Below, piece by piece: positions 44,330 through 61,457 of a stretch of DNA of 64,000 nt. Source of the DNA: Clostridia bacterium (GTDB lineage Bacteria > Bacillota > Clostridia > UBA1212 > DUPL01); the NCBI GenBank assembly GCA_050951325.1, contig JBMNIW010000011.1, positions 64,001 through 128,000 of the forward strand, read 5' to 3'. The stretch's first letter is position 1. Each line of letters starts with the position of its first letter. The notes under the pieces are model-generated. The model searched no databases. It worked only from the letters and a program-made list of their open reading frames with translations, and had not been told where the DNA came from. The translations under genes and the position numbers were made by a program.

Positions 44330-46953
44330 CTATTTTCGCTTCATAGCTTTCTGGTGAAGATTGAATAAAACATTCAAGGCTTCTATAGGTGTTATCGTCT
44401 GGACATCCAGATTCTTGAGCTCTTCCACTATTTCATCCCGCATAACGGTGTTTGCTGCATAGGTAAACAAGTCAACCTGTCCTTCGCCGTCCTTGTTCCT
44501 CCTCTTTAATCTCCTTATTTCCTTTCTGCTTATGTCCTGTTCCTCAAGAATGGATAAAGAGTTCCTTCGCTCTTATTGTAACAGCCTGGGGAATACCGGC
44601 CAGCTGCGCTACCTCAATTCCGTAGCTGCCATCGGCCCCTCCCCGCTTCAGTTTTCTAAGGAAAACAATGTCGTCTCCCTTTTTCAGAACATCAACGCAG
44701 TAGTTTTTAACCCCCTGTATTTTCCCTTCCAACTCGGTTATCTCATGGTAATGGGTTGCGAACAATGTCCTGCTTTTTATGTTCTCCAATATGTATTCAA
44801 GCACAGCCCATGCTATTGATAGACCGTCAAAGGTACTTGTACCCCTTCCTATTTCATCCAGGATCAGGAGACTTCTTTCAGTGCTGTTTGATAGAATATT
44901 TGCTACCTCGCTCATTTCCACCATGAAGGTACTCTGACCTGATGCAAGGTCGTCTGATGCTCCAACTCTTGTAAAGAGCTTGTCCACAATACCAATAACA
45001 GCGCTTTCAGCGGGTACAAAGCAGCCAGCCTGAGCCATTAGAACAATTAGGGCAACCTGCCTCATATATGTGGACTTTCCGGCCATGTTTGGTCCTGTGA
45101 TTACCAGCAATGTATCGTCCTCCGGTGCAACATATGCATCGTTCGGTACGAATTCACCGTCAGAAAGCATCTTCTCCACCACAGGGTGTCTTCCCTGTAT
45201 TATGTCAATAACAGGCTCCTCGGTCATTTCAGGCTTTACATAGTTCTCCCTGTCGGCTACTTCCGCAAAGCATGCAAGTACGTCAAGGATTGCCACTAGC
45301 TGTCCTGTATGCATGAGTCTTTTCACGTTGCCTGCCACGCTCTGACGTATTTCTACAAATAGTTTGTATTCAAGTTCCGTCAGTTTTTCATCTGCCTCAA
45401 GGATGGCCTCCTCAATTTTTGCGAGTTCTTCCGTTGTATATCTTTCGCTGTTTGCCAGCGTTTGTTTCCTTATATAGTGTTCAGGAACCAGGTCGTAATT
45501 GGCCTTTGTCACTTCCAGGTAATATCCAAAGACCCTGTTGTACCCTATTTTCAGATTCTTGATTCCCGTCTTTTCCTTCTGCTCGCTTTCATAATCAGCA
45601 AGCCATTTCTTTCCGTCCCTTGCTGCTACCCTGTACAAGTCAACCTGGTTGTTGTATCCATCCTTGATCAACCCGCCTTCTGTTACACTTATCGGCGGTT
45701 CTTCCACTATGGCCTTGTCTATGAGTTCATATATGTCTTCAAGGCAATCCAGGTTTTCATATATCTCCCGCATTATGGCGGATTGGCATGCATTTATTGC
45801 GTTTTTGACATAAGGCAGCTGACCCAGAGATTGTTTGAGCGATATCAAATCCCTGGCATTTACATTTCCCAAAGATATCTTTCCTGTAAGGCGTTCAATG
45901 TCGTAAACTCCGTTCAATATTTCGCGTATTTCGCTTCTTGTCATGAACAGTTCTTTCAGTTCTGCAACGCCGTCAAGTCTTTTGTTTATTTCAGCTATAT
46001 TCAAGCAAGGGTTTTTCCAGCCACTTTTTTAGTTCACGGCCTCCCATTGCAGTTATGGTCTTGTCCAAAACCCATAAAAGGGAACCTTTTTTCTTCTTGT
46101 CCCTCATGGTTTCCGTTATCTCAAGATTCCTTCTTGAAGATGCGTCTATGGACATGTATTCATCTATTTTATAAAAATTAATAGTGAGCAGGTGATCCAA
46201 ATTGTTGTTTTTTTGCGTATTCATTATGTACGAGTACAAGGCACCCGCACTGTTTACGGACAAATCATACTCGCTAATCTTTTGATCCTTTATGTACTCG
46301 TTGATAAGTAGTCTGCCCTTGTCGTAGTCAAATTCTTCCTCAGGTATTGTACTTATGTACGCTCCTGTCAGGTTTGATATGAGTTTTTTTATTCTATCCA
46401 GATCTTTTGCATCTTCATTGATTATGACTTCCTTGGGGGAGTATCTTGCCACCTCGTCCGCAAGACGGTTTATGCTGGCGCCTATGGATAGCGTCGTACA
46501 GTACATCTCGCCCGTGGATACGTCTGCGGAACTGATGCCATACATGCCCCTGAAGCAATAAATGCACATAATATAGTTGTTGGATTTCTGATCAAGCATC
46601 TGCTCCTCGACTATTGTGCCGGGAGTATATATTTTTACAATCTCTCTTTTTACTATGCCTTTAGCAGTGGCAGGATCCTCTACCTGCTCACAGATGGCCA
46701 CCTTGTATCCATTTGATACAAGCTTGCTTATATACGACAGAGCAGCATGATAAGGCACGCCGCACATAGGGGCACTTTCGGAAAGCCCGCATTGACGTTT
46801 AGTCAACACGAGCTCGAGTACTTTTGATGCAACTATTGCATCATCAAAGAACATTTCATAAAAGTCCCCCAACCTGAAGAAAAGTATACAGTCTTTTACC
46901 TGCTCCTTTATGGTCATATATTGCTTCATCATAGGAGTCAGCTGCTCTGTCAT
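44330..46953 (-). CDS. mutS: DNA mismatch repair protein MutS, with two apparent +1 frameshifts (near 46002 and 44557)
   Basis: TPMMKQY, FRLGDFYEMF, GRHPVVE, TGPNMAGKSTY, GQSTFMVEM, DEIGRGTST. The missing C-terminus (LSILEEQ...QVDLF...ITPIEALN) lies in another frame and ends at 44330. Confidence 0.93.
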
Positions 46954-46986
46954 TATATATTTCCTCCAAATTTCAGTATTCAGCAA

Positions 46987-50281: not shown

Positions 50282-50313
50282 ATGCGTGTTTATCCCCCAG
50301 TTTTACATTGTGA

Positions 50314-50340
50314 AACCCACACATTTGTCATGTGTGGGTT
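50314..50340 (-). terminator. 11 bp hairpin: operon terminator or leader element of the permease gene
   Basis: AACCCACACAT-ttgtc-ATGTGTGGGTT. Confidence 0.5.
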
Positions 50341-50433
50341 GATTTGTCTAACAATATATTTTATATCGAACATGGGGAAAATGCAATTATGTTTTAAAGT
50401 TTAACAATGTTCACGGATATGTAAAAGCGCTTA

Positions 50434-52305
50434 TTAGTCTTTGTTATTCATGATGATCTTCAACGCTTCCTCTACGGGTAAAGGTTGATAATAGTAGTAT
50501 CCTTGAATGGCATCGCACCCCAGTTCAATAAGATTTTGAACAGTATCCAGGGTTTCAGCACCTTCTCCAAAAACGGTCATGCTCATCTCATGGCATATAT
50601 CAATAATACCTTTGACCACTACTTTTCCTCTTTCCGTTTCAACTCTGTTTATAAGTTTTCTATCAATTTTCAGACCTTCAAACTCATATTCGTACAAATC
50701 ATCAAAAGAGGAGCCATAACCGAAATCATCCAGAACCACATGAATGCCGTCCTCCTTGATTCGCCTCAAGTTCTCATATGTTTTTGACATGTCCTTTTGC
50801 AGATAGCTCTCCGTAACTTCAAGTATAAGGGTGTCGTGTTTGAAATTATGTTCATTTATTATACTCGTAACAGTTTCTACAAGTTTTTCGGACTCCAGAG
50901 TCTTCCTGGACAGATTAAAGGAAATAAAGAAGTCATCTATTCCTTGCTGATACAGATACTCAAGCAAAGAGCAGGTTCTATTCAGGATGTGGTAGTCAAG
51001 AATGGATGCCTTTCCTTCCCTCTCCAGTGCGTGAACAAATCTTTCAGGGAGAAGAATTCCCAGTCTTGGGTGGTGCCATCTGGCAAGAGCTTCAGCTCCA
51101 ACGATTGAGTTGCTTTTGGGATCCACAAAGAAATGAAGGTAAAGCTTTATTTCTTCATTATAAATTGCCCTTTCAAAATTTTTCAAAACTTCGGATTCTT
51201 CTTCCAGAGTATTAGCAATACTGTTGGAAAAGAAAGAATACTCTTTATCATTTCTTGCAGCATGCATGCACGCCTGCTCGGCTTTGAACGCGATGTCCAT
51301 TATGTCTTCATTGTGACTTTCCATGTTGCACACACCTGCATAAAAACAACTTGTTGCACCAGCCTGCCCTGCAATAAGATTATTAACCTTTTCTATGACA
51401 GAGGATAAAAATTGCTCCAGCTTAATATCACTGACACACATTTTAAGCATTAAAAAGGCATCGTCCTTTGCCCTTACCAGCAGATCGTACTCTCCTTCAT
51501 GGTCCGTCAGTACTCCTGCAGTTTTCTTGAGGATGTTGTCAATTTCACTACGGGAGCATAGTTCACCCAGCTTCCTCAGATCTATCCTGTAGTAAATGGC
51601 CTTGTATAGTACACAATTGTGTCTATTGACAATTTTTCTGTATATTCCCTCAAGTCCTGCCATGTTCACCATGTTTGTCAGAGAATCTGTTTCCAGAAAC
51701 TTTTTTAAATTCCTGTACTTGCTACCTGTTACCAGAACAACAATAACAAGTGATGCAAGAAGAGCAAAGACAATGCTACCTGCTATCATCTTGACAAGTG
51801 TGTTATTTCTAGCCTGGAATGAGTCAATACTTTCTAGCATTAGTCCATTCATCTTCTTCTCACTGATGTTGGATAGATATTCGGAAAGAGAGTTTGCCAG
51901 GTTATCATCCACAATTTCCGTAAGAAGAATGCGTATCTCTTTGTCTATACCCTGTCTTTCCGCACGAATAACCGTTATTCCTGCATTCCATAACTCCTCG
52001 TCAAATCCGTCCTGCAGTTGACATCCTGAAACAAGCTCCACCTGCAGATTCTTCAACAGGTACTTTCTGTTGTCTTCTTCTCCCGGACGCAAATAGACGA
52101 TTTCATACTGTGAGTTGTCCGAGAACTCTTTCAGAAGCTGCGGAATAACCCCTTTATATTCTTTATCCTTTGAGTCATAGTACTCAATTGGATAAAGATT
52201 CGGATTTCCCGCCACATACACCAGGGTTTTCTCCGCACCCCAAGTATCAGAAACCATTACAGTCAGCAATACAATTGCAATAATCAGTGCTGAAATTCTT
52301 TTCAT
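50434..52305 (-). CDS. Extracellular sensor, TM, degenerate GGDEF and EAL c-di-GMP phosphodiesterase
   Basis: Signal peptide; NPNLYPIEY...YKGVIP.LL solute-binding-like domain; RAKDDAF in place of GGDEF; AEALARW, NLS, EVTES, DDFG, KIDR, EGAE, QGYY. Confidence 0.9.
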   Translation of the reverse strand: MKRISALIIAIVLLTVMVSDTWGAEKTLVYVAGNPNLYPIEYYDSKDKEYKGVIPQLLKEFSDNSQYEIVYLRPGEEDNRKYLLKNLQVELVSGCQLQDGFDEELWNAGITVIRAERQGIDKEIRILLTEIVDDNLANSLSEYLSNISEKKMNGLMLESIDSFQARNNTLVKMIAGSIVFALLASLVIVVLVTGSKYRNLKKFLETDSLTNMVNMAGLEGIYRKIVNRHNCVLYKAIYYRIDLRKLGELCSRSEIDNILKKTAGVLTDHEGEYDLLVRAKDDAFLMLKMCVSDIKLEQFLSSVIEKVNNLIAGQAGATSCFYAGVCNMESHNEDIMDIAFKAEQACMHAARNDKEYSFFSNSIANTLEEESEVLKNFERAIYNEEIKLYLHFFVDPKSNSIVGAEALARWHHPRLGILLPERFVHALEREGKASILDYHILNRTCSLLEYLYQQGIDDFFISFNLSRKTLESEKLVETVTSIINEHNFKHDTLILEVTESYLQKDMSKTYENLRRIKEDGIHVVLDDFGYGSSFDDLYEYEFEGLKIDRKLINRVETERGKVVVKGIIDICHEMSMTVFGEGAETLDTVQNLIELGCDAIQGYYYYQPLPVEEALKIIMNNKD

Positions 52306-52814
52306 ACACCCACCATCGTTTTCTTTTTCTTAAACAAGGTCAGCCTTTCTTTGGGCTCCGGTTCACTTATTTCCATCTCACTCTTAATATCATGCATGTC
52401 TTCAAGCTTTTCATTTAATTCTTTGTCAAACTTCTCAAGAAGATTCCTTATATCCTCCCGTATACAACTTATTGATTCTTCATAAGATTCAAGCCTTTTC
52501 TTCTCCAAGCCATACTTTGACCTTAGTTTGGCTCTCATATCCTGTTCCATCTCATGTGTATCCTTCTTAATTTGAGATGCAAAATTTCTTGCTTCAACAA
52601 TTGTCATAGATATAGCTTTCTGTACACTTTTCAATTCCTCGTTCTCCATCTCCAGCTCAATAATTCTCTGCTTAAGTTCCATGATTTCCTTTTTGTGAAG
52701 CTCTTCCTTTTCTTGAATTCTTTGCTCATACTTCTCGTTGAGTTTCATTACGTACCGGTATACACTCTCTTTGTTGTAGCCAAACAATCCTTTCTTCAGC
52801 TCGCTTAACAGCAT
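52302..52814 (-). CDS. Coiled-coil protein with DivIVA-like N-terminus
   Basis: LKKGLFGYNKESVYRYV followed by a long E/K-rich coiled coil. Confidence 0.65.
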   Translation of the reverse strand: MLLSELKKGLFGYNKESVYRYVMKLNEKYEQRIQEKEELHKKEIMELKQRIIELEMENEELKSVQKAISMTIVEARNFASQIKKDTHEMEQDMRAKLRSKYGLEKKRLESYEESISCIREDIRNLLEKFDKELNEKLEDMHDIKSEMEISEPEPKERLTLFKKKKTMVGV

Positions 52815-52829
52815 GATTTCATCCCCCCA

Positions 52830-54242
52830 TCAGTTGTAGTCGATTTTCTTTCTCTCGATTCTTCCCCAAGTCCTTTTTACTTTGCGATACCTGTTAATGG
52901 CAGTCATCCTCACCCATGAGATTATGAATCTCAGGAAGGACACTTCCACAACACTTAACAGGATTGCTTTACATGCATCTCTAAATCCTATTTTAAGATT
53001 GATGGTTTGAACTCTTGAAAAAAAGGCTGTCAATGACAATATTGCTGCATAAAGAGCATATACAAGAAGAAACAGTATCATGAACCTTGTGTTCAATATG
53101 CCAACGACACCAGCCAGGAATATTGAAATCACTCCAAACACCTCAATGTATGGAGAAAGCAGCTCGTATATAAGAAAGTAGAGGTAAGATACAAAACTCA
53201 ACAACCCATATCCGGGGTTGAAGAACATTGTCTTATGAGTCATAAGGCTTTGAAGCAGACCAATCTGCCACCTTCTCCTCTGCTGCATAAGGTCCTTCAT
53301 CTTTTCAGGTACCTGACTCCAACAGATGGCATCAGTCGCGTATCTTACCTGATAGTCAATATTGTGCTTCCTACAATACACATGAAGCTTTACCACCAGT
53401 TCCATGTCCTCTCCCAGAGTCCTGTCGTCATAACCTCCTGCAGCAATCACCACATCCTTCTTAAAGAGTCCGAAAGCTCCGGATATGATCATGCTCCCGT
53501 TGAACTTGTCGAAAAATATTCTTGCAGCCAGAAACGATCTGTCATATTCCAGGACCTGCATGCATGCAAGCATGTTTTTAGGGAGTTTGAAGTCAACAAC
53601 ATGCCCGTCCACCAGTATTGCACCATTGCTAGGTCTAACAGCGCTGCCTACAGCAATTACTTTGTCGCTCATCAGTATCGGCTTAACTATTTTTTCCAAA
53701 GAATCATACTGAAGTATTGAGTCTGCATCTATGCAAATAAAGTATGGGTAATTCGAAGAATTTATGCCCATGTTTAGAGCATCCGCCTTGCCTCCATTTA
53801 CTTTCTTAATCAAGGTTATCGGAACTTTATACATATGGGTTTCATATACAAACACTTCAGGCTGGCATTCTATCTGAATCCTGATAGGCTTTTTTATCTT
53901 CTTCATGGAAAACTTTTCAATAAGGACTTCCGAAGTCAAATCGGTGGAACCGTCGTCAATAACGATAATCTCATACAACCCGTAGTCAAGAGCAAGAAGA
54001 GACTGTACCGTGGATACAATAGTCACTTCTTCATTGTGTGCGGGAACAAGTATGCTTATTGGTATGTACTGCGCATTGTCAAGCTCGTTTCTAAGAACAT
54101 TCTGCCTTCTGTTTTGATATAGAGTGGTGGAACCCACTATAACCGAAAGAAACATGAATGTGGAATATCCAACAAGGTATATTATGAAAAAAAGCGCTAT
54201 GTAATCGTATATCAGTTTAATAATATCAATATAGTTTTCCAT
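52830..54242 (-). CDS. Processive GT2 glycosyltransferase (PgaC/IcaA/BcsA-like)
   Basis: VPAHNEE, DDGSTD, NGGKADALN, IDAD, SGAFG, EDME, QRRRW; TM helices at both ends. Confidence 0.93.
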   Translation of the reverse strand: MENYIDIIKLIYDYIALFFIIYLVGYSTFMFLSVIVGSTTLYQNRRQNVLRNELDNAQYIPISILVPAHNEEVTIVSTVQSLLALDYGLYEIIVIDDGSTDLTSEVLIEKFSMKKIKKPIRIQIECQPEVFVYETHMYKVPITLIKKVNGGKADALNMGINSSNYPYFICIDADSILQYDSLEKIVKPILMSDKVIAVGSAVRPSNGAILVDGHVVDFKLPKNMLACMQVLEYDRSFLAARIFFDKFNGSMIISGAFGLFKKDVVIAAGGYDDRTLGEDMELVVKLHVYCRKHNIDYQVRYATDAICWSQVPEKMKDLMQQRRRWQIGLLQSLMTHKTMFFNPGYGLLSFVSYLYFLIYELLSPYIEVFGVISIFLAGVVGILNTRFMILFLLVYALYAAILSLTAFFSRVQTINLKIGFRDACKAILLSVVEVSFLRFIISWVRMTAINRYRKVKRTWGRIERKKIDYN

Positions 54243-55348
54243 TAATTCACCACCTTGCTGTTACCATTGCTAATATTTGTCTCAATGCGATACATTAGCA
54301 TCTCTCTTGCATACTTGTCATATCCGTTTATTATATCAATGAGATTCAAATACTCCACTCCCAGAGACTTGAGGCTCTTTGCGGCATTGTACCTTACATG
54401 CCAGTTTGTGCTTTTCAATGCCTGCTTCAATGCATCAATCGATTCCTGCTCCCGGTAGCTGCCAAGACTCACCGCACTTATGGCTGCATATTCCCAGTTG
54501 TCTTCCGAGTTTTTAACGAAGTTTATTAAAAGGGGCAGACTTGGCTTATACGCATGTCTCCCAAAGTATCGAATAGCCGAAAAGTGCAGTTCCTTGTTAA
54601 CAGACTCATCCTTTAGTATTCCCAGCATCTCCTCGTTGTAGCTTGAACTTACAAACCTTATGTAATTGAGAATAACCAACTTGATTTCATCACTGAAACC
54701 ATCAAGGTTGTCATACAGGATTCTGGTTAGATTTTCGTGGTCTCCAGTGAACTCGATTAGCATGTTTGTCAGTAGCTTTCCATGTATGTACAGTTTTCTT
54801 CTGTCAATTATCTTCAACGCTAAAAGAACTTTTTCCTCATTACCGAAACTTATGAGTGCCTTTAGTGTATTCTGTCTTGTGTAGATACTGTCAAACTTCA
54901 AATATGCAAGCATTACCTCACCTATGGGATCGATAGGAAGGTCTTTTGCTATTCTGTACTTGCCAAGTACATGTGCAAGATATGCAGCTTTAATTGAATC
55001 CTTCTCAAGGTATTCAAAACCCAGGTGTATAAAAACCGAGTAAATCTCCTTGATGTATTCTTGCGCCAGTTCTGGTTTGTCCTGAAATGCTCTTTCCAAC
55101 GCCCTGTCAAAAACCAAAAGATTGCCGACATGCACCAATGTCCTTTTCAAATATTTTTCATGGTACATGCATACAGGTTTTGATATGGCAATTTCATCCA
55201 TCTGACATTTTATTTCATTGTACATTTTTACACTTCTTTTGCTTCTGCTTTTCTCCCGGTACCTGATTGCTACAGCGCAATATATGTTGAATAATATCAT
55301 GGATACGCATATGATTAAATAACTGTATACCAGTATAAGAATATCCAA
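54242..55348 (-). CDS. Membrane-anchored HEAT-repeat protein
   Basis: N-terminal TM; AIRYFG, AVSLG, L.STNWHVRYNAAKSL; TTG start after GGAGGAG. Confidence 0.8.
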   Translation of the reverse strand: MDILILVYSYLIICVSMILFNIYCAVAIRYREKSRSKRSVKMYNEIKCQMDEIAISKPVCMYHEKYLKRTLVHVGNLLVFDRALERAFQDKPELAQEYIKEIYSVFIHLGFEYLEKDSIKAAYLAHVLGKYRIAKDLPIDPIGEVMLAYLKFDSIYTRQNTLKALISFGNEEKVLLALKIIDRRKLYIHGKLLTNMLIEFTGDHENLTRILYDNLDGFSDEIKLVILNYIRFVSSSYNEEMLGILKDESVNKELHFSAIRYFGRHAYKPSLPLLINFVKNSEDNWEYAAISAVSLGSYREQESIDALKQALKSTNWHVRYNAAKSLKSLGVEYLNLIDIINGYDKYAREMLMYRIETNISNGNSKVVN

Positions 55349-55366
55349 CTCTACTCCTCCCAAACC

Positions 55367-57490
55367 TTATGAATTTCTCCAATACTCCTGAAGTATGTAA
55401 TATGAGGATTTAAGCCTTTCATGCCATGTTACCTTCTTACCCCATCCTTTCAGTTTGTACTCTCCCATTGGAATCCTCTCAGTGGAATCACCAACGCCCA
55501 CGTACATTCTGTCTATGGTAATATATTCAACTCCGTAGTGTTCGTAATAGTCGTCATGTATCTTCATCTCTGAAGGGTTTGCAAAGTTCAGAATCTGCCA
55601 GGGTAGTTTAAGCTCTATGTACTCCCCGTTGAAAATGTAATCTGCAAGGGAGTTGAAATCCTCTGATATAGGATTTGCATTTCCATAAATGAGATGACCG
55701 GTTTCATACACCTCTGCCGGAGCATCAATATCGTCTGTAAGGAGGACCGTGGCCGTTTGCAGCATCAAGTTTATCTCCTTGAACATAGGAGTGTTTTTAT
55801 CGATAATGTTCACATATGGGTCCTTTTTATGTGTTTCATGATAGTACATCGCTCTTAATACCTCATATCTCTCCTGAACCAGCACCCTTGAATTTTCATA
55901 GCCATCAATTACGATCACGAAATCACTTTCCCTTTCAAATTTAAGGTTGTAATTCAGACAATAATTACTTCCGGTTTTGGGTGTCGTATCGATGGGAATG
56001 TATATCTTGTCCGTTTCAGGATTGAACCTGGGTTTATGTATGAGAAAGTATATGAACCGCTCATCATACATCATTGACAAACTCATGTTTTTGTTTTTAC
56101 ATACAATATGAGAGTCCTTCCATTCACTGATGTCTCCATCAACATAACATATGCTTTTTTCATCACCAGGATCAAACGACAGAAGACCGAAGTACTGCTC
56201 GTTTGTTTGATAGTCGCTCCAGTATGGGGTTTTATGCAAATCAACCGCATGCATGGTGTTCCAGGTTCTTTTGAACCATTCATCCTGCCATGTAAAAACA
56301 CAACCACCTGCAGCCCCTGCTTCCCTTATATCCTCAAAACAACGAACCAAAGCTTTTCCCTGATCTTTTTCAGACATGTATCCCTGGTTTCTGCCTGTAT
56401 TTCTGTCCTTCTGCGCCATACCTCTACCTGTTGACACACCGAACTCGGCAATCACTACAGGTATGGCATGGTGCTCTACCAGCATTTTCAGATATGCAAG
56501 GTATGTGTTCAGTTCACCTTTTTCATCGATGAAACCGCTTTGGTCATCAAAATAAGCAAGATAATCCGGATAGTAAGGATATACATGATATGAGGCAAAA
56601 AAACCGGAAATAAACTTATCAGTAGTCCTTATGTTTTCAACATCAACCTTGGCACATTTCATGAAGAAACTTTCAATATCCTTTGGATAATCAAACGGAT
56701 CAGTGGTTGGCCAGTTAGTGAAAGCCACAAGTCTTTGCTGCTTGTATCTGACTGTCTCATACTCAATAATTTTATCTCCCACCTCGGCAAGAAGGGCTTC
56801 AAAGGGCGATGCATTTTCATCAGTGTACATATATTTACCCTGGTATCTGTTCCTCTCGGGATATTTTCTGTTTGTATACTCAACCGTTACATCCTCCCAC
56901 TCGACACCCAGGATATAACCTATCACCCATTGTGATATGTCCTTTAGATATCTGCCGGACCCGTAGGACGAGTTGTTGTATATCTTCTTATTCCCATGAA
57001 TTATGTCCACCACTGTTTTACAGTCAGATATGAACTTTTTTCTAAAGTCATCATGAAATGCATCCCGGCGGGAATTCTGAACATAGTCGTTGACCCACAC
57101 TCCCTGAATCAGATACAAAGGGTCTTCCCTGTCTTTGTTGAACTCATAAAAGGCATTGTAAAAATCATCGTGCAGAACAGTGTACACCCTGATTGTGTTG
57201 GCACCCATATCCTTGATGTATTCAAACCATCTGATAAAAGTCTCTTTATCTATGGCGTAATCCGTAGCCCATTTACCCGGAATTCCAAGACCCATGTTGA
57301 CACCCTTTATTTCAAGTATCTCATACACTCCATCCTTGTTTATGTATATATTTTGGCCCTCCGTTTTTATAAAGGTCTCCGGTGGTTTGTTCGGATTGAA
57401 ATCGATATATATACCCCATCTGTAATAAGCCATATCTGAGAGAACAAGCAAAAACACCACCAGGGATACAATAATTATGAATTTCTTCAT
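55367..57490 (-). CDS. Secreted clan GH-A-like (GH2/GH5-like TIM barrel) putative glycoside hydrolase
   Basis: Signal/anchor helix; KGVNMG, MGANTIRVY, GVEW, HVYPYYP, IAEFG, FTWQDEW, NEQYFGL. Confidence 0.75.
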   Translation of the reverse strand: MKKFIIIVSLVVFLLVLSDMAYYRWGIYIDFNPNKPPETFIKTEGQNIYINKDGVYEILEIKGVNMGLGIPGKWATDYAIDKETFIRWFEYIKDMGANTIRVYTVLHDDFYNAFYEFNKDREDPLYLIQGVWVNDYVQNSRRDAFHDDFRKKFISDCKTVVDIIHGNKKIYNNSSYGSGRYLKDISQWVIGYILGVEWEDVTVEYTNRKYPERNRYQGKYMYTDENASPFEALLAEVGDKIIEYETVRYKQQRLVAFTNWPTTDPFDYPKDIESFFMKCAKVDVENIRTTDKFISGFFASYHVYPYYPDYLAYFDDQSGFIDEKGELNTYLAYLKMLVEHHAIPVVIAEFGVSTGRGMAQKDRNTGRNQGYMSEKDQGKALVRCFEDIREAGAAGGCVFTWQDEWFKRTWNTMHAVDLHKTPYWSDYQTNEQYFGLLSFDPGDEKSICYVDGDISEWKDSHIVCKNKNMSLSMMYDERFIYFLIHKPRFNPETDKIYIPIDTTPKTGSNYCLNYNLKFERESDFVIVIDGYENSRVLVQERYEVLRAMYYHETHKKDPYVNIIDKNTPMFKEINLMLQTATVLLTDDIDAPAEVYETGHLIYGNANPISEDFNSLADYIFNGEYIELKLPWQILNFANPSEMKIHDDYYEHYGVEYITIDRMYVGVGDSTERIPMGEYKLKGWGKKVTWHERLKSSYYILQEYWRNS

Positions 57491-57512
57491 TTTTCGTGGT
57501 TCCCTCCTGCAG

Positions 57513-58976
57513 CTAGTGATTGAACTTCTTGACTTTTGACTCATGGCCATATTGCTTTATGACCTCAATATGCTCATCCAACCATGCTCCTCTTATCATA
57601 ATATGTTGTCGCATAAGCATGACCGCCTCTCCGTGACTTTTGGGATTTCGATCCTCACCAGCAACCAGATCGAGATCAAACGAATATCCCCAAACATCGA
57701 AATTTCTAACGATGGCTTCTCCCAGATATTTGATAACACTGTCGATATAATTGGCAAGGTACTCGTCACTAAGGACCCATTTTCTTAACTCTCTGTATCG
57801 GTCAATTACCTTGTTACAGAAATACTCATCCTTCATTAGCATGAAGTACCATACCTTGTTTGGAAAAGCGAACTTAAAAGGATCCAGGATGTCGTCCTGA
57901 TAGTTGTTATGGGCAGAGTTGAAGTCCCAGATTACAAACTTGTATTTACCTCCCACATCCTTGTAAATATATGTTGAATATGCCACCGCATCGTAATTGC
58001 TGGTAAACTCGTTGATAATAAAATAATCGACAAATGAATCCACATCGACGTACTTACGGTAACCATGTTTCTTTGAATCATAATCGTAGGAGTACAGTGC
58101 TTTTTCAAAATCTGAAAACTCTCTTTCAATAACTGTTTTCATCTCCTGTGTAAGGGTTGATGCCCTTGGATACTCGACGTCTAAAACATGGTAATTTCTG
58201 AGTGCGTAGTTTGTAAATGCAGTTATATTTTTAAATTCATTTGTACTGCCCCTGTCAAGCCTGATAACATAACCTGTCTTGCCTGTATTGCCTATCGGCT
58301 CAGACAACTTCAACCTTGCATTTTTCGAAGAAGTTATTGTCTCTGTCATCAAGTACAGACCTAGGTACTCTCCGTTCAGAATAACTTCACAAAATCGAAC
58401 ATTTGGGGCGTAGTCCATTATCTCTCCTGCTATGTTGTACCACATGTAATTCCTTATCAATGTCTTGTCAAGATACGGACCATGCAGCACCCATTCATAA
58501 TGGGGCTCCATGCCCATTACTTTAACATGTTTGTAACCCTCTCCGTTAACAAATCGTATTAGATAGTTTTTCTTGTCGAAATGTCTCGAGGTGTTTCCTC
58601 TAATACGTATTAATGCAGTTGAATCTATTGCAGGTTCATCACCCGGATGATTGTAGCTCTTTTCATTGTCTATAATCCTTATGGAGCTCGCAAGCATCCT
58701 CTCCCCGTCTTCTGTTAATGTGTATTTGATTCTGCCATCTTCTTTATACACTTCTCCGGGTATGTCAATGCCGCTGGTGTCGATTATCACCAGTGGCAGG
58801 TGGGTGCAGAGTTCTTCATCCGTGTGAAGACATGCCTCTGTCGGTTTGGGGTAATGAAGATGCTGATGTATTCGTTTTGAGCTCTTACCTTTGGACATGT
58901 TGTTTGCAAAGGCCGACACGAAAATGACAAGGACAAAAAGGACAAATGCAATCAGTTTTTTCTTCAATGCAATCAA
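57513..58976 (-). CDS. Secreted CotH-family kinase
   Basis: Signal peptide; IRIRGNTS..FDKKNY, DKTLIRN, NGEYLGLY..E, NYD, IWDFN. Confidence 0.9.
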   Translation of the reverse strand: MIALKKKLIAFVLFVLVIFVSAFANNMSKGKSSKRIHQHLHYPKPTEACLHTDEELCTHLPLVIIDTSGIDIPGEVYKEDGRIKYTLTEDGERMLASSIRIIDNEKSYNHPGDEPAIDSTALIRIRGNTSRHFDKKNYLIRFVNGEGYKHVKVMGMEPHYEWVLHGPYLDKTLIRNYMWYNIAGEIMDYAPNVRFCEVILNGEYLGLYLMTETITSSKNARLKLSEPIGNTGKTGYVIRLDRGSTNEFKNITAFTNYALRNYHVLDVEYPRASTLTQEMKTVIEREFSDFEKALYSYDYDSKKHGYRKYVDVDSFVDYFIINEFTSNYDAVAYSTYIYKDVGGKYKFVIWDFNSAHNNYQDDILDPFKFAFPNKVWYFMLMKDEYFCNKVIDRYRELRKWVLSDEYLANYIDSVIKYLGEAIVRNFDVWGYSFDLDLVAGEDRNPKSHGEAVMLMRQHIMIRGAWLDEHIEVIKQYGHESKVKKFNH

Positions 58977-58981
58977 TCCTT

Positions 58982-59659
58982 TCAGCCTGAAATGTCTTCA
59001 TTTTGAGCAATTATGTTTACATAGTCTACATTGCCAATCTCGTATATTGCATCCGTTATGCTCTTATCTTCTTTGTCGGAGTTTTTAAAGGTCTTCTTCG
59101 ACATCTCGTAGATGTATTCAACTGTTTCTTTTCCTGTGTTTTTCGCCTTAAGGTTTGCCTTGTGCATGAAATATTGGAAAACCACAGCTTCGATTCTCTT
59201 CTCATTGGAACGTGACGCTCTAATGACCAATATTACACGATCATCATTTTTAAGTCTTCCAAAGAATAAAAGAATCAAGAACACAAGGAAGCTTCCCAAT
59301 GACGCAACAATAAAATCACCCACTCCACAACATATGCCGACAATTATGGTCCAGAATATGAACACGGTATCTCTAGGATCCTTTATTGCGGTTCTGTATC
59401 TGACTATGGACAGTGCACCTACCATGCCTAAAGATAGGACAATATTGTTTCCTATAACCAACATTACCGTAGTGGTCAGCACGGTTAGCACAACCAAGGA
59501 TACATTGAACCTCCTGCTGTAAACACTCAAGTCATGAGAAAGCCAGTAGGTAAAATATATTATTATGGCAATTACTAGAGAAACCAGCAATCTAAGCAGA
59601 ATATCCGACGCTTCCAAACTGCCTGTCTGTTCAAACAACTGGTATATGTACTGTCTCAT
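58982..59659 (-). CDS. DUF4956 membrane protein
   Basis: IGNNIVLSLGMVGALSIVRYRTAIKDPRDT.FIFW. Confidence 0.92.
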   Translation of the reverse strand: MRQYIYQLFEQTGSLEASDILLRLLVSLVIAIIIYFTYWLSHDLSVYSRRFNVSLVVLTVLTTTVMLVIGNNIVLSLGMVGALSIVRYRTAIKDPRDTVFIFWTIIVGICCGVGDFIVASLGSFLVFLILLFFGRLKNDDRVILVIRASRSNEKRIEAVVFQYFMHKANLKAKNTGKETVEYIYEMSKKTFKNSDKEDKSITDAIYEIGNVDYVNIIAQNEDISG

Positions 59660-59691
59660 ATGTCACAATTCCTCTCCTTCGCTATATGTAT

Positions 59692-60375
59692 TTATCTTAA
59701 AATGACTCTTGCCATGCAATATTTGCTGATTGACAACTCCATTTTATTAGAAATGCTTGTAATGTCTTTAATGTAACCCGGTAGAAAACCATTGAACTTT
59801 ACTTCCAATATATCGTTGAATTTCTCCGCAACCGGATATAGAAGCAGATTTTCAGAAAACAGGTTATAACATGACTCAGTCGCTTTTAAATCCGAGTCTA
59901 TGGTTATGCGGACGTCATTTTCATTTGCAACGAATGCGGTTCTGTTATACTCAACTATGATTCTCGGCCGGTAACAGTATGTGTTTAAAATGTAGAAGAG
60001 TTCTGTTGCAAGGCTTTCTTTATACTCAAGCAGAACATGATATTTCCCGCTGACTACTGCCTGAGCATCTTCCCTGCTGATAGCAAGGGATCTTTTTCTC
60101 TGATACGAACCTTGCTTTTGCTTGATTTCAAATTTCGCAATTTCGCTGTCAGGACTGTACGTTCTTAACCTTATTTTGTGTCTATTAAAAACACCCATGT
60201 CCTTTTCCTGATAATCCTTGTCATATGGAGTGTCAAAGTACAACGTTCGAACCATGTAGCCTGTATCTTTATTATGCTTGTCTTCCATCATTATTCTTTT
60301 CATTATGGCTATAAGTTTTGAAGATTCAATCTTGTTTATCTGATACTTCTTCTCCTGTCTTAATACTTCCTTCAA
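59692..60375 (-). CDS. VTC-domain (polyphosphate polymerase/CYTH-like) protein
   Basis: RQEKKY, RTLYFDT, RHKIRLRTY, EIKQK, YNRTAF, RITID, ILEVKF, SKY; TTG start at 60375 after GGGAGG. Confidence 0.92.
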   Translation of the reverse strand: MKEVLRQEKKYQINKIESSKLIAIMKRIMMEDKHNKDTGYMVRTLYFDTPYDKDYQEKDMGVFNRHKIRLRTYSPDSEIAKFEIKQKQGSYQRKRSLAISREDAQAVVSGKYHVLLEYKESLATELFYILNTYCYRPRIIVEYNRTAFVANENDVRITIDSDLKATESCYNLFSENLLLYPVAEKFNDILEVKFNGFLPGYIKDITSISNKMELSISKYCMARVILR

Positions 60376-60394
60376 CTTAACAACCTCCCGAAAC

Positions 60395-60432
60395 AAAAAA
60401 AGACTGCAATTATTATTAAAATAATTGCAGCC
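60395..60432 (-). terminator. Intrinsic terminator forming the riboswitch expression platform
   Basis: Minus strand GGCTGCAATTATT-ttaat-AATAATTGCAGTC-TTTTTTT, just upstream of the VTC RBS. Confidence 0.85.
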
Positions 60433-60510
60433 TGTCGATCATAGCATTATGCTTTAGATACATGGCTTTGCGTCTCCACCTTTCGGAGGATTTGCCTTTT
60501 GTATAAGTTT
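60423..60510 (-). ncRNA. Cyclic di-GMP-I (GEMM-I) riboswitch
   Basis: Minus strand AAAAGGCAAATCCTCCGAAAGGTGGAGACGCAAAGCCATGTATCTAAAGCATAATGCTATGATCGACAGGCTGCAA: GGCAAA, GAAA tetraloop, GACGCAAAG, TCTAAA/TATG receptor. Confidence 0.92.
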
Positions 60511-60530
60511 ACATTTTGATCTACTCATTG

Positions 60531-61457
60531 TCAATACCCTTGAATAAATTTTTTGATAATTTCTTTTTTTACTTTTCTTTCCTTTATAATTTCATCTTTA
60601 ACATTCCCGAACAACATCTCTCCAAGGGGATCATGTTTTATAAATCTTGCCTTGCAACTGTCAATACTGTAATTGGCGTAACAGTATATACATCCATTCA
60701 TACATGTATTATACACACCAATATCGATACTCTCCACGCATCCGCAGTTTTTTCTCTGGCTTCTGTCTTGTTTAACGTTCAAGCCATATCCACATATGGA
60801 CTCAACCAGCTCCTTGTCAATGCAACTTGACTTCTGTATACCATATGCGGTCAAATCCAGTTCTTCACAACAAGCTTTTGGAGCAAGACCATATTCTCTT
60901 GCAGTTTTACCCATGAACTCAGAAAGTTCGAAAATCTCCTCAATTGCAATGTCACGAACATAATCACTTTTAATCTTTGAGTACCTGTCTACATAACTGA
61001 CTACAACGATTTTTGTGTGTGAAGCCAATCTTTCACAAAGATATGCAAACTGTCTCTTGTGATAATCAATATCAATATAATGTGCAAGAAGAACAGGGTC
61101 GTATCTCCACACAACCTTATCCTTGCCTATCATTTCAGACAGCTCGATGAACGTTTTGACTACATCATTCTTGTCTCGCATGTTTCGTTCAATATCCTTA
61201 CCGTAAGGCGTAAGTGTAAACTGAAAATAGTATTTGTAACCCATGTCATCTACTTCGGAAAGATACGGGAGAAAGTTTTTAGGATCCTTTGTCCAGAACA
61301 CAATACAGTCCACCACATCACTCCCAAGAGGTGTTTTGTACACCTGAGAATGATTGAAAGGGTTCCTTACGAGCACGTATCCTTCTTTCAGTCTGTTTAA
61401 AAACCACTGTCCGTAGTGACAGGGAATGTCGGTCCACCTTGATGCAGATATTATCAT
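60531..61457 (-). CDS. DUF1848 family protein
   Basis: MIISASRWTDIP, IVFWTKDP, QFTLTPYG, WRYDP, QRKNCGCVESIDIGVYNTCMNGCIYCYAN. Confidence 0.92.
   Translation of the reverse strand: MIISASRWTDIPCHYGQWFLNRLKEGYVLVRNPFNHSQVYKTPLGSDVVDCIVFWTKDPKNFLPYLSEVDDMGYKYYFQFTLTPYGKDIERNMRDKNDVVKTFIELSEMIGKDKVVWRYDPVLLAHYIDIDYHKRQFAYLCERLASHTKIVVVSYVDRYSKIKSDYVRDIAIEEIFELSEFMGKTAREYGLAPKACCEELDLTAYGIQKSSCIDKELVESICGYGLNVKQDRSQRKNCGCVESIDIGVYNTCMNGCIYCYANYSIDSCKARFIKHDPLGEMLFGNVKDEIIKERKVKKEIIKKFIQGY

Follow-up and report, generated by a model that had tools for sequence, protein, structure and literature searches.

The succession of a VTC-domain protein, a DUF4956 membrane protein and a CotH-family kinase is not new to the literature. 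Lepp et al. reported the same gene order in 2010 for NELoc-2, the necrotic-enteritis-associated locus of Clostridium perfringens (PMC2879425, Table 4), in which the DUF4956 genes were mis-named as tubulin/FtsZ, and a 2024 survey re-annotates these tubulin/FtsZ genes as coding for polyphosphate-polymerase-domain proteins (PMC11677781). In the Pel loci of streptococci, clostridia and bifidobacteria, Whitfield et al. (2020) recognised an accessory set consisting of cotH, a gene for a polyphosphate polymerase, DUF4956 and DUF4832 (PMC7112168). A 2025 paper on Streptococcus intermedius, according to which the fourth accessory gene encodes an active glycosidase, reports no instance of the three-gene synteny other than in Pel loci (PMC12345266). 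We describe here a further example of this published, functionally uncharacterised locus type, in a stretch of 64,000 nucleotides from a Clostridia bacterium (contig JBMNIW010000011.1, positions 64,001 to 128,000; "the window" hereafter means this whole stretch). The locus adds three things to what was known: a context other than Pel, a riboswitch, and a lead to proteins of the Cthe_2159 family. The trio itself had already been published; what is new is the appearance of Cthe_2159 proteins as an alternative partner of VTC and DUF4956.

An initial annotation of the window had described three neighbouring genes, coding for a stand-alone cytoplasmic VTC domain (motifs RxExKY, KxRxRxY, EVK and SKY), a multi-transmembrane DUF4956 protein and a signal-peptide CotH kinase with an intact-looking WDFN motif, and had set the end of the locus at 60375. 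It further proposed that VTC and DUF4956 could form a split VTC machine delivering polyphosphate (polyP) or another phosphoryl donor across the membrane, with which CotH would phosphorylate the glycan or surface proteins. The descriptive part of this annotation is borne out: Pfam identifies all three families on the minus strand, the four VTC motifs are all found in the sequence, hydropathy scans agree with the predicted topologies (zero transmembrane segments in the VTC protein, several in DUF4956, an N-terminal segment in CotH), and position 60375 coincides with the likelier start of the VTC gene. The genes lie head to tail between 57513 and 60396, separated by 32 nt (VTC/DUF4956) and 5 nt (DUF4956/CotH), and 22 nt separate the CotH gene from the next one, which encodes a protein of about 707 amino acids (aa). 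The trio is the front of eight closely packed, co-oriented genes running from 60396 down to 50434, together an exopolysaccharide operon of the NELoc-2 type, in which CotH is followed by the ~707-aa protein, a HEAT protein, a PgaC-like GT2 protein, a DivIVA-like protein and a protein with an EAL domain and a degenerate GGDEF domain. The features at the head of this operon are the following.

60423..60506, minus strand: c-di-GMP-I (GEMM-I) riboswitch aptamer in the operon leader (Rfam RF01051)
60394..60433, minus strand: intrinsic-terminator-like hairpin with a U7 tract (ViennaRNA fold, 14 bp, -17.3 kcal/mol)
59692..60396, minus strand: VTC-domain protein, open reading frame (ORF) of 234 aa (Pfam PF09359, E 2.9e-39, 135 bits)
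58982..59659, minus strand: DUF4956/MgtC-like membrane protein, 225 aa (Pfam PF16316, 42.1 bits, above the cut-off)
57513..58976, minus strand: exported CotH-family kinase, 487 aa (Pfam PF08757, E 4.5e-55, 187.8 bits)

From its sequence, the VTC protein is a putative cytoplasmic triphosphate-tunnel enzyme of the Vtc4 type and a candidate polyP polymerase. The VTC domain (residues 13-230; numbers follow the 234-aa ORF starting at 60396) is its sole Pfam match, and no SPX domain was found on it by Pfam. The likelier start is a TTG at 60375, which gives 227 aa and stands 8 nt after GGGAGG, outside the terminator. The motifs read RQEKKY at 13, KIRLRTY at 74, EIKQK at 90, EVKF at 198 and SKY at 224. 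An alignment of 51 sequences (the window protein, its paralogue and 49 proteins from other genomes) has 22 invariant positions, mostly charged or aromatic and alternating, as expected for a triphosphate tunnel, and the corresponding profile matches yeast Vtc4 (3g3q) at E 1.2e-17, with weaker matches to Vtc2 and Vtc3. In the profile alignment, K17 corresponds to K200 of Vtc4 (whose residue numbers are counted from the native-numbered chain 8i6v), R76 and R78 to R264 and R266, E90 and K92 to E279 and K281, K101 to K294, Y150 and R152 to Y359 and R361, and R163 to R373; K17, R78, K92, Y150, R152 and R163 are invariant in the 51 sequences and R76 is conserved in at least 90% of them. The alignment with Vtc4 ends at profile position 169, before the region of E426, and the invariant E198-V-K200 lies beyond this point; since the Pfam model is matched over its positions 2-231, E198 is probably the equivalent of E426. 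The roles of the remaining tunnel residues of Vtc4 are reportedly those given in the 2009 paper on its structure. The Vtc4 mutant R264A/R266A/E426N is described as catalytically impaired (PMC9911596). Among longer relatives of the VTC protein we observed a 520-aa GGDEF-VTC ORF (P0001/P0002 set), which may be a gene call across the leader from an upstream GGDEF gene of the kind seen in loci L035, L041 and L044, and an ORF of 695 aa in which a coiled-coil N-terminal part is joined to a VTC domain.

The DUF4956 protein also matches the Pfam model of MgtC, at 26.7 bits and so below the cut-off of 31.4, and no membrane family besides DUF4956/MgtC was found in it by Pfam at E values up to 10. Its AlphaFold model (predicted local distance difference score, pLDDT, 78.6; predicted template-modelling score 0.62; alignment of 51 sequences) has helices at 17-41, 49-69, 73-90, 95-113 and 116-134, and residues 141-218 form a beta-alpha-beta domain. 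This C-terminal domain superposes on the C-terminal domain of MgtC (2lqj) with a Z score of 9.4 (85 residues aligned, root-mean-square deviation 3.6); the ACT domain of Rel ties with 2lqj at Z 9.4, 7qa5 reaches Z 8.8, and 2lqj is also the top Foldseek row for the model (E 8.7e-3). For the transmembrane part, fold searches gave nothing above background and no Vtc1 row among those listed, which is compatible with folds that may still agree. Across the 51 sequences G81, R87, R89 and G108 are invariant and K93, D97 and W103 nearly so, defining a conserved basic loop, R87-x-R89-x-x-x-K93-x-x-x-D97. The mean number of lysines and arginines is 3.3 in the R87-x-R89-x-x-x-K93 loop and 2.4 after the last helix, and almost zero in loops 2-3 and 4-5. 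Because they are rich in these residues, the basic loop and the ACT-like domain are predicted, by the positive-inside rule, to face the cytoplasm, on the same side as the VTC protein.

As for CotH, its N-terminal hydrophobic signal/anchor segment spans residues 1-29 in a hydropathy scan and ends VSAFA/NN; an NYD motif stands at 327 (TSNYD) and WDFN at 350. The protein matches the CotH of Bacillus cereus (5jd9) at E 1.5e-4, with D329 and D351 aligned to the two aspartates of the latter. They correspond to D228 and D251 of B. subtilis CotH, aspartates 23 residues apart, of which the former is catalytic and the latter metal-binding, and mutation of either is reported to inactivate the kinase (PMC7821199). 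D351 is invariant in the 49 CotH proteins compared from trio loci, at least 90% of which keep D329. Since both catalytic aspartates are kept, the protein looks catalytically active.

The leader of the operon carries a c-di-GMP aptamer whose match to RF01051 scores 76.8 bits (gathering score 35, E 6.1e-14) over the full length of the model (1-87). The 5' arm of the terminator-like hairpin shares 60423-60433 with the 3' end of the aptamer; because of this overlap, ligand binding would withhold the terminator arm, as in a riboswitch of the ON type, and the element probably gates the operon, high c-di-GMP relieving the terminator. Metatranscriptome contigs of 156-321 nt from four biogas or digester runs match parts of seven of the eight operon genes, the HEAT gene being the exception, at 99% identity or more (positions 50300-60700 of the window were compared), and one contig covers 60231-60480, across the terminator and into the aptamer; these libraries may contain DNA, and we do not count the contigs as evidence of expression, nor are the parts left uncovered informative.

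The trio in the window is one copy of a widespread portable cassette, as can be seen from a sample of 200 genomes of the same class to which the window's own genome was added (one genome, G107, was unscored in most family searches). Related genomes are not independent of each other, and we therefore give counts and not probabilities. Of 200 genomes, 100 carry VTC-domain genes, 77 CotH and 53 PPK1; DUF4956 is present in 96 of 201. A DUF4956 gene lies within 3 kb of 113 of the 128 VTC matches, on the same strand and downstream in 112 cases; the VTC matches with no DUF4956 nearby are mostly partial or at contig ends, and VTC is present in all 96 DUF4956-positive genomes. The two constitute a near-obligate pair, linked far beyond chance. 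Of the 113 pairs, 51 have a CotH gene no more than 5 kb away, in every case on the strand of VTC (39 downstream, 12 upstream); genome-wide, CotH is found in 69 of the 100 VTC-positive genomes (31 show none) versus 8 of the 100 VTC-negative ones; these CotH counts are lower bounds, 17 CotH rows having been left out.

The surroundings of the trio vary considerably. For 50 trio loci from other genomes we classified the same-strand neighbours, up to three upstream and four downstream, with our own hidden Markov models and with Pfam, the latter applied to 183 of 497 unlabelled ORFs. The order seen in NELoc-2 (VTC, DUF4956, CotH, ~700-aa protein, HEAT, GT2) recurs in seven loci; PelF/PelG stand alongside the trio in five, a PilZ-bearing BcsA-like synthase with MBOAT and AlgX in one, and a two-component system, without synthase, in 14, while 23 show no recognisable gene among the flanking ORFs scanned. 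This class sample contradicts the Pel-only synteny reported in the 2025 paper, PelF/PelG being present at only five of 50 loci, and the locus in the window is itself a case in which the trio is not confined to a Pel locus. The two-component neighbours consist of an OmpR-type response regulator and a HisKA histidine kinase (for example in L021, L024, L025 and L034; further such loci include L037, L042, L047-L049, L053 and L057), which suggests that these trios are under dedicated two-component control replacing the riboswitch. A riboswitch precedes VTC in five of the seven other NELoc-2-type loci (by Rfam in L019 and L023, by a match to the core pattern in L035, L041 and L044) and in none of the five Pel-linked loci. 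Two tRNA genes directly upstream of the riboswitch (L019:3486-3654; L023:15350-15518) may mark a hotspot of operon integration. One of the NELoc-2-type loci has, inserted between its VTC and DUF4956 genes, a gene for a polysaccharide deacetylase of 584 aa that carries SLH domains (L041:4685-6439).

CotH is not the only exported protein that accompanies the pair. We examined 20 of the 61 CotH-less pairs from other genomes (those that scored highest with enough contig around them), and in 13 of them a protein of the Cthe_2159 family (PF14262) with a hydrophobic N-terminus directly adjoins the pair on the same strand, in the position held by CotH in other loci (L064-L066, L069, L070, L073, L075-L078 and L080-L082). 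These pairs are often accompanied by a response regulator and a histidine kinase. The Cthe_2159 domain, a beta-helix resembling polysaccharide lyases, is reported to bind cellulose and polygalacturonic acid (PMC6712302), and among the papers searched we found none linking it with the VTC domain, DUF4956 or polyphosphate. In the class-wide search it occurs in 69 of 200 genomes, 62 of the 100 that are VTC-positive and seven of the 100 that are VTC-negative. The census of pair neighbours, for which 75 Cthe_2159 rows with E <= 6e-18 were used, places 33 of these 75 within 5 kb of a pair; the 113 pairs divide into 51 with CotH, 33 with Cthe_2159, none with both and 29 with neither. At the level of whole genomes, 34 of the 100 VTC-positive ones have CotH only, 27 Cthe_2159 only, 35 both and four neither.

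A quick maximum-likelihood tree of 72 VTC proteins, with support values from SH-aLRT (a Shimodaira-Hasegawa-like likelihood-ratio test) only, splits into two clades with 99% support. All 46 rows of the first are CotH-linked, and a subclade of ten (99%) inside it unites the window, all seven NELoc-2-type loci, the BcsA-type locus and one other. The second, of 26 rows, comprises 13 Cthe_2159-linked pairs, eight partnerless pairs and five CotH-linked ones, and it holds all of the Cthe_2159-linked and all of the partnerless pairs, including the second pair of the window's own genome.

In the reading that we favour, the cytoplasmic VTC protein would polymerise phosphate from a nucleoside triphosphate at the membrane; the MgtC-like DUF4956 protein, working with it, would hand the chain, or the energy of its phosphoanhydride bonds, over to the outer face; and the exported partner, CotH here and Cthe_2159 elsewhere, would use or handle the chain beside nascent polysaccharide. 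We put forward this three-step module (VTC makes polyP, DUF4956 couples outward, an exported client uses the product) tentatively. It is built on the families to which the domains belong, the conservation of catalytic residues, the topology and the linkage of the genes, and from these we infer polyP synthesis, contact between VTC and DUF4956, export, and the targets and donor of CotH. The cytoplasm-to-outside anatomy of the earlier proposal fits what we find, with VTC in the cytoplasm, DUF4956 in the membrane with its basic loop inside, and CotH exported. Two of its other elements have to be given up. Feeding a kinase cannot be the general role of the pair, because the pair also occurs without CotH, beside the Cthe_2159 beta-helix protein; and "split VTC machine" says too much, DUF4956 being MgtC-like, with no likeness to Vtc1 found, so that one may write "works like" a VTC complex and not "member of" one. 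In favour of the module are also the division of the VTC clades by type of partner, the lack of a PPK1 or PPK2 match in the window's own genome, and the altered Pel level and aggregation reported for DUF4956 and CotH deletions in S. intermedius (PMC12345266). The exchangeable exported partner, CotH or Cthe_2159, is in our opinion the strongest new point for the favoured module. Its more general formulation, that VTC and DUF4956 are a two-protein engine making polyP on the inner side of the membrane and delivering it, or its bond energy, to interchangeable exported clients (CotH, Cthe_2159), is possible but doubtful.

Several points weigh against this module. To our knowledge, biochemical activity has been described for no bacterial VTC, DUF4956 or exported CotH protein, and we know of no kinase-fold enzyme that uses polyP. 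The 29 pairs (of 113) with neither CotH nor Cthe_2159 within 5 kb, one of them the second pair of the window's own genome, have no evident client; and as 37 of the 50 trio loci lack a polysaccharide synthase among the flanking ORFs scanned, a glycan target is not general. No VTC-DUF4956 fusion was found among longer VTC relatives (two proteins at E <= 1e-5 among 594 candidates, neither with DUF4956), which is weak evidence. The strongest objections are the absence of a Vtc1-like channel and the phenotypes in S. intermedius. Neither Pfam nor the fold searches detected a likeness of DUF4956 to the Vtc1-type (DUF202) channel, and a single protein with five transmembrane helices is not an obvious conduit for polyP. 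As to the phenotypes, deletion of DUF4956 or of CotH is reported to reduce aggregation in artificial sputum to less than half, the two deletions shifting the level of Pel in opposite directions, and deletion of VTC to leave aggregation unchanged (PMC12345266). A strict line from VTC through DUF4956 to CotH is hard to fit with these data, because the VTC deletion strain still aggregates and the other two change aggregation.

PolyP could instead be itself the exported product, an anionic component of the matrix or wall that binds cations or cross-links a partly deacetylated, cationic polysaccharide, in which case CotH and Cthe_2159 would bind, anchor or trim it, and CotH would not use it as a donor. 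The occurrence of the pair with a non-kinase whose domain binds the polyanion polygalacturonic acid (PMC6712302) is in line with this idea, as are the trios beside Pel and PgaC-like synthases and the deacetylase genes, one inside L041 and another reported for NELoc-2 (PMC11677781). We nevertheless consider it unlikely: the catalytic aspartates are kept across 49 CotH sequences, which argues for catalysis over mere binding, the scanned flanks of 37 of 50 trio loci have no adjacent synthase, and the export step is here as inferential as in the module that we favour. That nothing is exported seems to us improbable to a similar degree. The VTC protein would then be a cytoplasmic triphosphatase, an enzyme of polyP or phosphate homeostasis, or a sensor (triphosphate-tunnel enzymes do include hydrolases and cyclases), DUF4956 would be an MgtC-like regulator acting through its ACT-like domain on a membrane machine, for example the polysaccharide synthase or the ATP synthase, and CotH would be an independent exported enzyme using ATP from lysis or leakage. 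The C-terminal domain of DUF4956 does match that of MgtC and ACT regulatory domains equally (Z 9.4 each), and the opposite effects on Pel of deleting DUF4956 and CotH, with none for VTC, look regulatory (PMC12345266). Such a view would not explain, however, why the pair goes with an exported partner, in its immediate surroundings (84 of 113 pairs) as well as genome-wide (96 of 100 VTC-positive genomes). Against it is also that the VTC family model is matched over its full length with the Vtc4 residues kept.

It might finally be argued that CotH is an ordinary mother-cell kinase of the spore coat whose adjacency to VTC and DUF4956 is incidental; the host is a probable spore former (a SpoVT gene is present in the window) and its genome has nine CotH-family matches. 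We find this very hard to believe. CotH has an N-terminal signal/anchor segment and stands on the strand of VTC in all 51 CotH-linked pairs, and the same trio is reported from streptococci, which do not sporulate (PMC7112168). Because the gene sits in a riboswitch-driven operon with polysaccharide-synthesis genes, a role in the spore coat is unlikely, and the remark of the initial annotation that this CotH looks unrelated to spore coat assembly is supported to that extent.

Synthesis of polyP in bacteria is normally ascribed to PPK1 and PPK2. Neither of them was found in the 96%-complete assembly of the window's own genome (nor were PelG, PF16933, and Cthe_2159), and its two VTC proteins are the only recognisable candidates for a polyP synthase that it contains. 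This genome has two VTC-DUF4956 pairs besides the nine CotH-family matches, several of which are in open frames of 600-1070 aa. The second pair (C5:25380-26697; L013:9330-10899) has no CotH or Cthe_2159 neighbour; just upstream of it lie an ORF of 125 aa and a gene whose 237-aa product has an N-terminal domain of the purple-acid-phosphatase type. We considered, and rejected, the idea that VTC replaces PPK1: the class counts (35 genomes with both, 65 with VTC only, 18 with PPK1 only, 82 with neither) show no complementarity, and a Fisher p-value would not be meaningful for related, non-independent genomes. The window also encodes an anaerobic ribonucleotide reductase and an Fe-only hydrogenase, and near-identical DNA is present in bioreactor and anaerobic-digester metagenomes, of which 14 runs hold at least 95% of the sampled words; the host is a strictly anaerobic and probably spore-forming member of the Clostridia from digester-type habitats. 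As a side observation, mutS (44544-46986, minus strand) reads as two overlapping ORFs, 45991-46986 with domains I-III and 44544-46004 with domains III-V, which points to a split gene, a frameshift or an error of sequencing.

If the pair does make and export polyP, it would represent a third and widespread bacterial route to this polymer, VTC-domain genes being present in half of the class sample and 65 of those 100 genomes showing no PPK1. It would also suggest an answer to the question of how exported enzymes with a kinase fold obtain a phosphoryl donor and would offer a general means to power, or to supply with phosphate, chemistry outside the cytoplasm, where ATP is absent. Published work connects the locus type with biofilm and aggregation, in the case of Pel loci, and with an island associated with necrotic enteritis, and its chemistry bears on matrix biology. 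We found no publication proposing export of polyP by these proteins, supplementary files being outside our search; a 2023 review, in the part concerned, maps the VTC domain only across eukaryotes (PMC10657179).

The five genes that follow the trio in the operon are listed below.

55367..57490, minus strand: membrane-anchored protein of about 707 aa (start ATG at 57490; its homologues begin MKKF)
54242..55363, minus strand: HEAT-repeat protein with an N-terminal transmembrane segment at 1-35, 373 aa (Pfam HEAT_2, E 6e-11)
52830..54242, minus strand: PgaC/IcaA-like processive membrane GT2 synthase, 470 aa (Pfam; DAD at 172, QRRRW at 321)
52302..52814, minus strand: DivIVA-like coiled-coil protein, 170 aa (Pfam DivIVA, E 3.7e-5, below the cut-off)
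50434..52305, minus strand: membrane sensor with an EAL domain and a degenerate GGDEF domain (Pfam EAL E 1.8e-51, GGDEF E 3.3e-6)

The ~707-aa protein has no match in Pfam (E up to 10) or NCBIfam, and the Atlas puts it in its own family of about 727 aa, with no named family above 0.86. The model of this protein is of low confidence (pLDDT 53.9, alignment of eight sequences); Foldseek returned 47 matches to it at E <= 0.001, those listed being glycoside hydrolases, mostly of families GH157, GH5, GH2 and GH158, with template-modelling scores of only 0.14-0.24 when normalised by query length. It is probably a TIM-barrel glycosidase resembling clan GH-A with a beta-sandwich added, an assignment that we take as a lead only. 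The GT2 synthase, in which transmembrane segments are present, matches NCBIfam TIGR03937 at E 1.2e-39, far under the equivalog cut-off. In the sensor at the end of the operon the EAL domain looks intact (EAL at 405, DDFG at 526) and the GG(D/E)EF motif is absent; judged by these motifs, the protein is probably a c-di-GMP phosphodiesterase.

How does this locus compare with the systems already known? With the eukaryotic VTC complex (Vtc4/Vtc3/Vtc1; 3g3q, 7ytj, 8i6v; PMC9911596) it shares a tunnel domain in which the Vtc4 residues can be mapped and the pairing of a cytoplasmic enzyme with a membrane component, but the VTC protein of the window has neither an SPX nor a transmembrane domain, and its partner is, by Pfam, MgtC-like and not Vtc1-like. 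DUF4956 in turn has the multi-transmembrane N-terminal part and ACT-like C-terminal domain of the MgtC family (2lqj, 7qa5), differing in a Pfam score for MgtC that remains below the cut-off, in its assignment to the DUF4956 family and in its constant pairing with VTC. CotH agrees with the Bacillus protein (5jd9; PMC7821199) in the family model and in both catalytic aspartates, and departs from it in having an export signal and in belonging to a vegetative-type operon under riboswitch control. In Gram-positive Pel loci, such as that of S. intermedius (SIR_1591-1594, PMC12345266), the same three families are contiguous and are followed by a membrane-anchored glycosidase; in the window, by contrast, the neighbours are the HEAT, GT2, DivIVA-like and EAL proteins, there is no contiguity with pelDEADAFG, and the synthase is PgaC-like. 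The DUF4832 glycoside hydrolase of the Pel set was not found at this locus, where the ~707-aa protein may, to judge from its model, be an analogue. Membership in a Pel locus was considered and rejected, as there are no pel neighbours and the search of the 96%-complete genome gave no PelG match. The closest resemblance is with NELoc-2 (PMC2879425), whose Table 4 gives 230-232 aa for VTC, 222-226 for the membrane protein, 497 for CotH, 685 for a conserved hypothetical protein, 377 for HEAT and 466 for the GT2 "chitin synthase", to be set beside 234, 225, 487, ~707, 373 and 470 aa in the window, the comparison being one of gene order and size. NELoc-2 has in addition a VTC/membrane-protein pair duplicated around a resolvase and an upstream sigma/anti-sigma pair, and in the place of these extras the window has a c-di-GMP riboswitch upstream and the DivIVA-like and GGDEF-EAL genes downstream.

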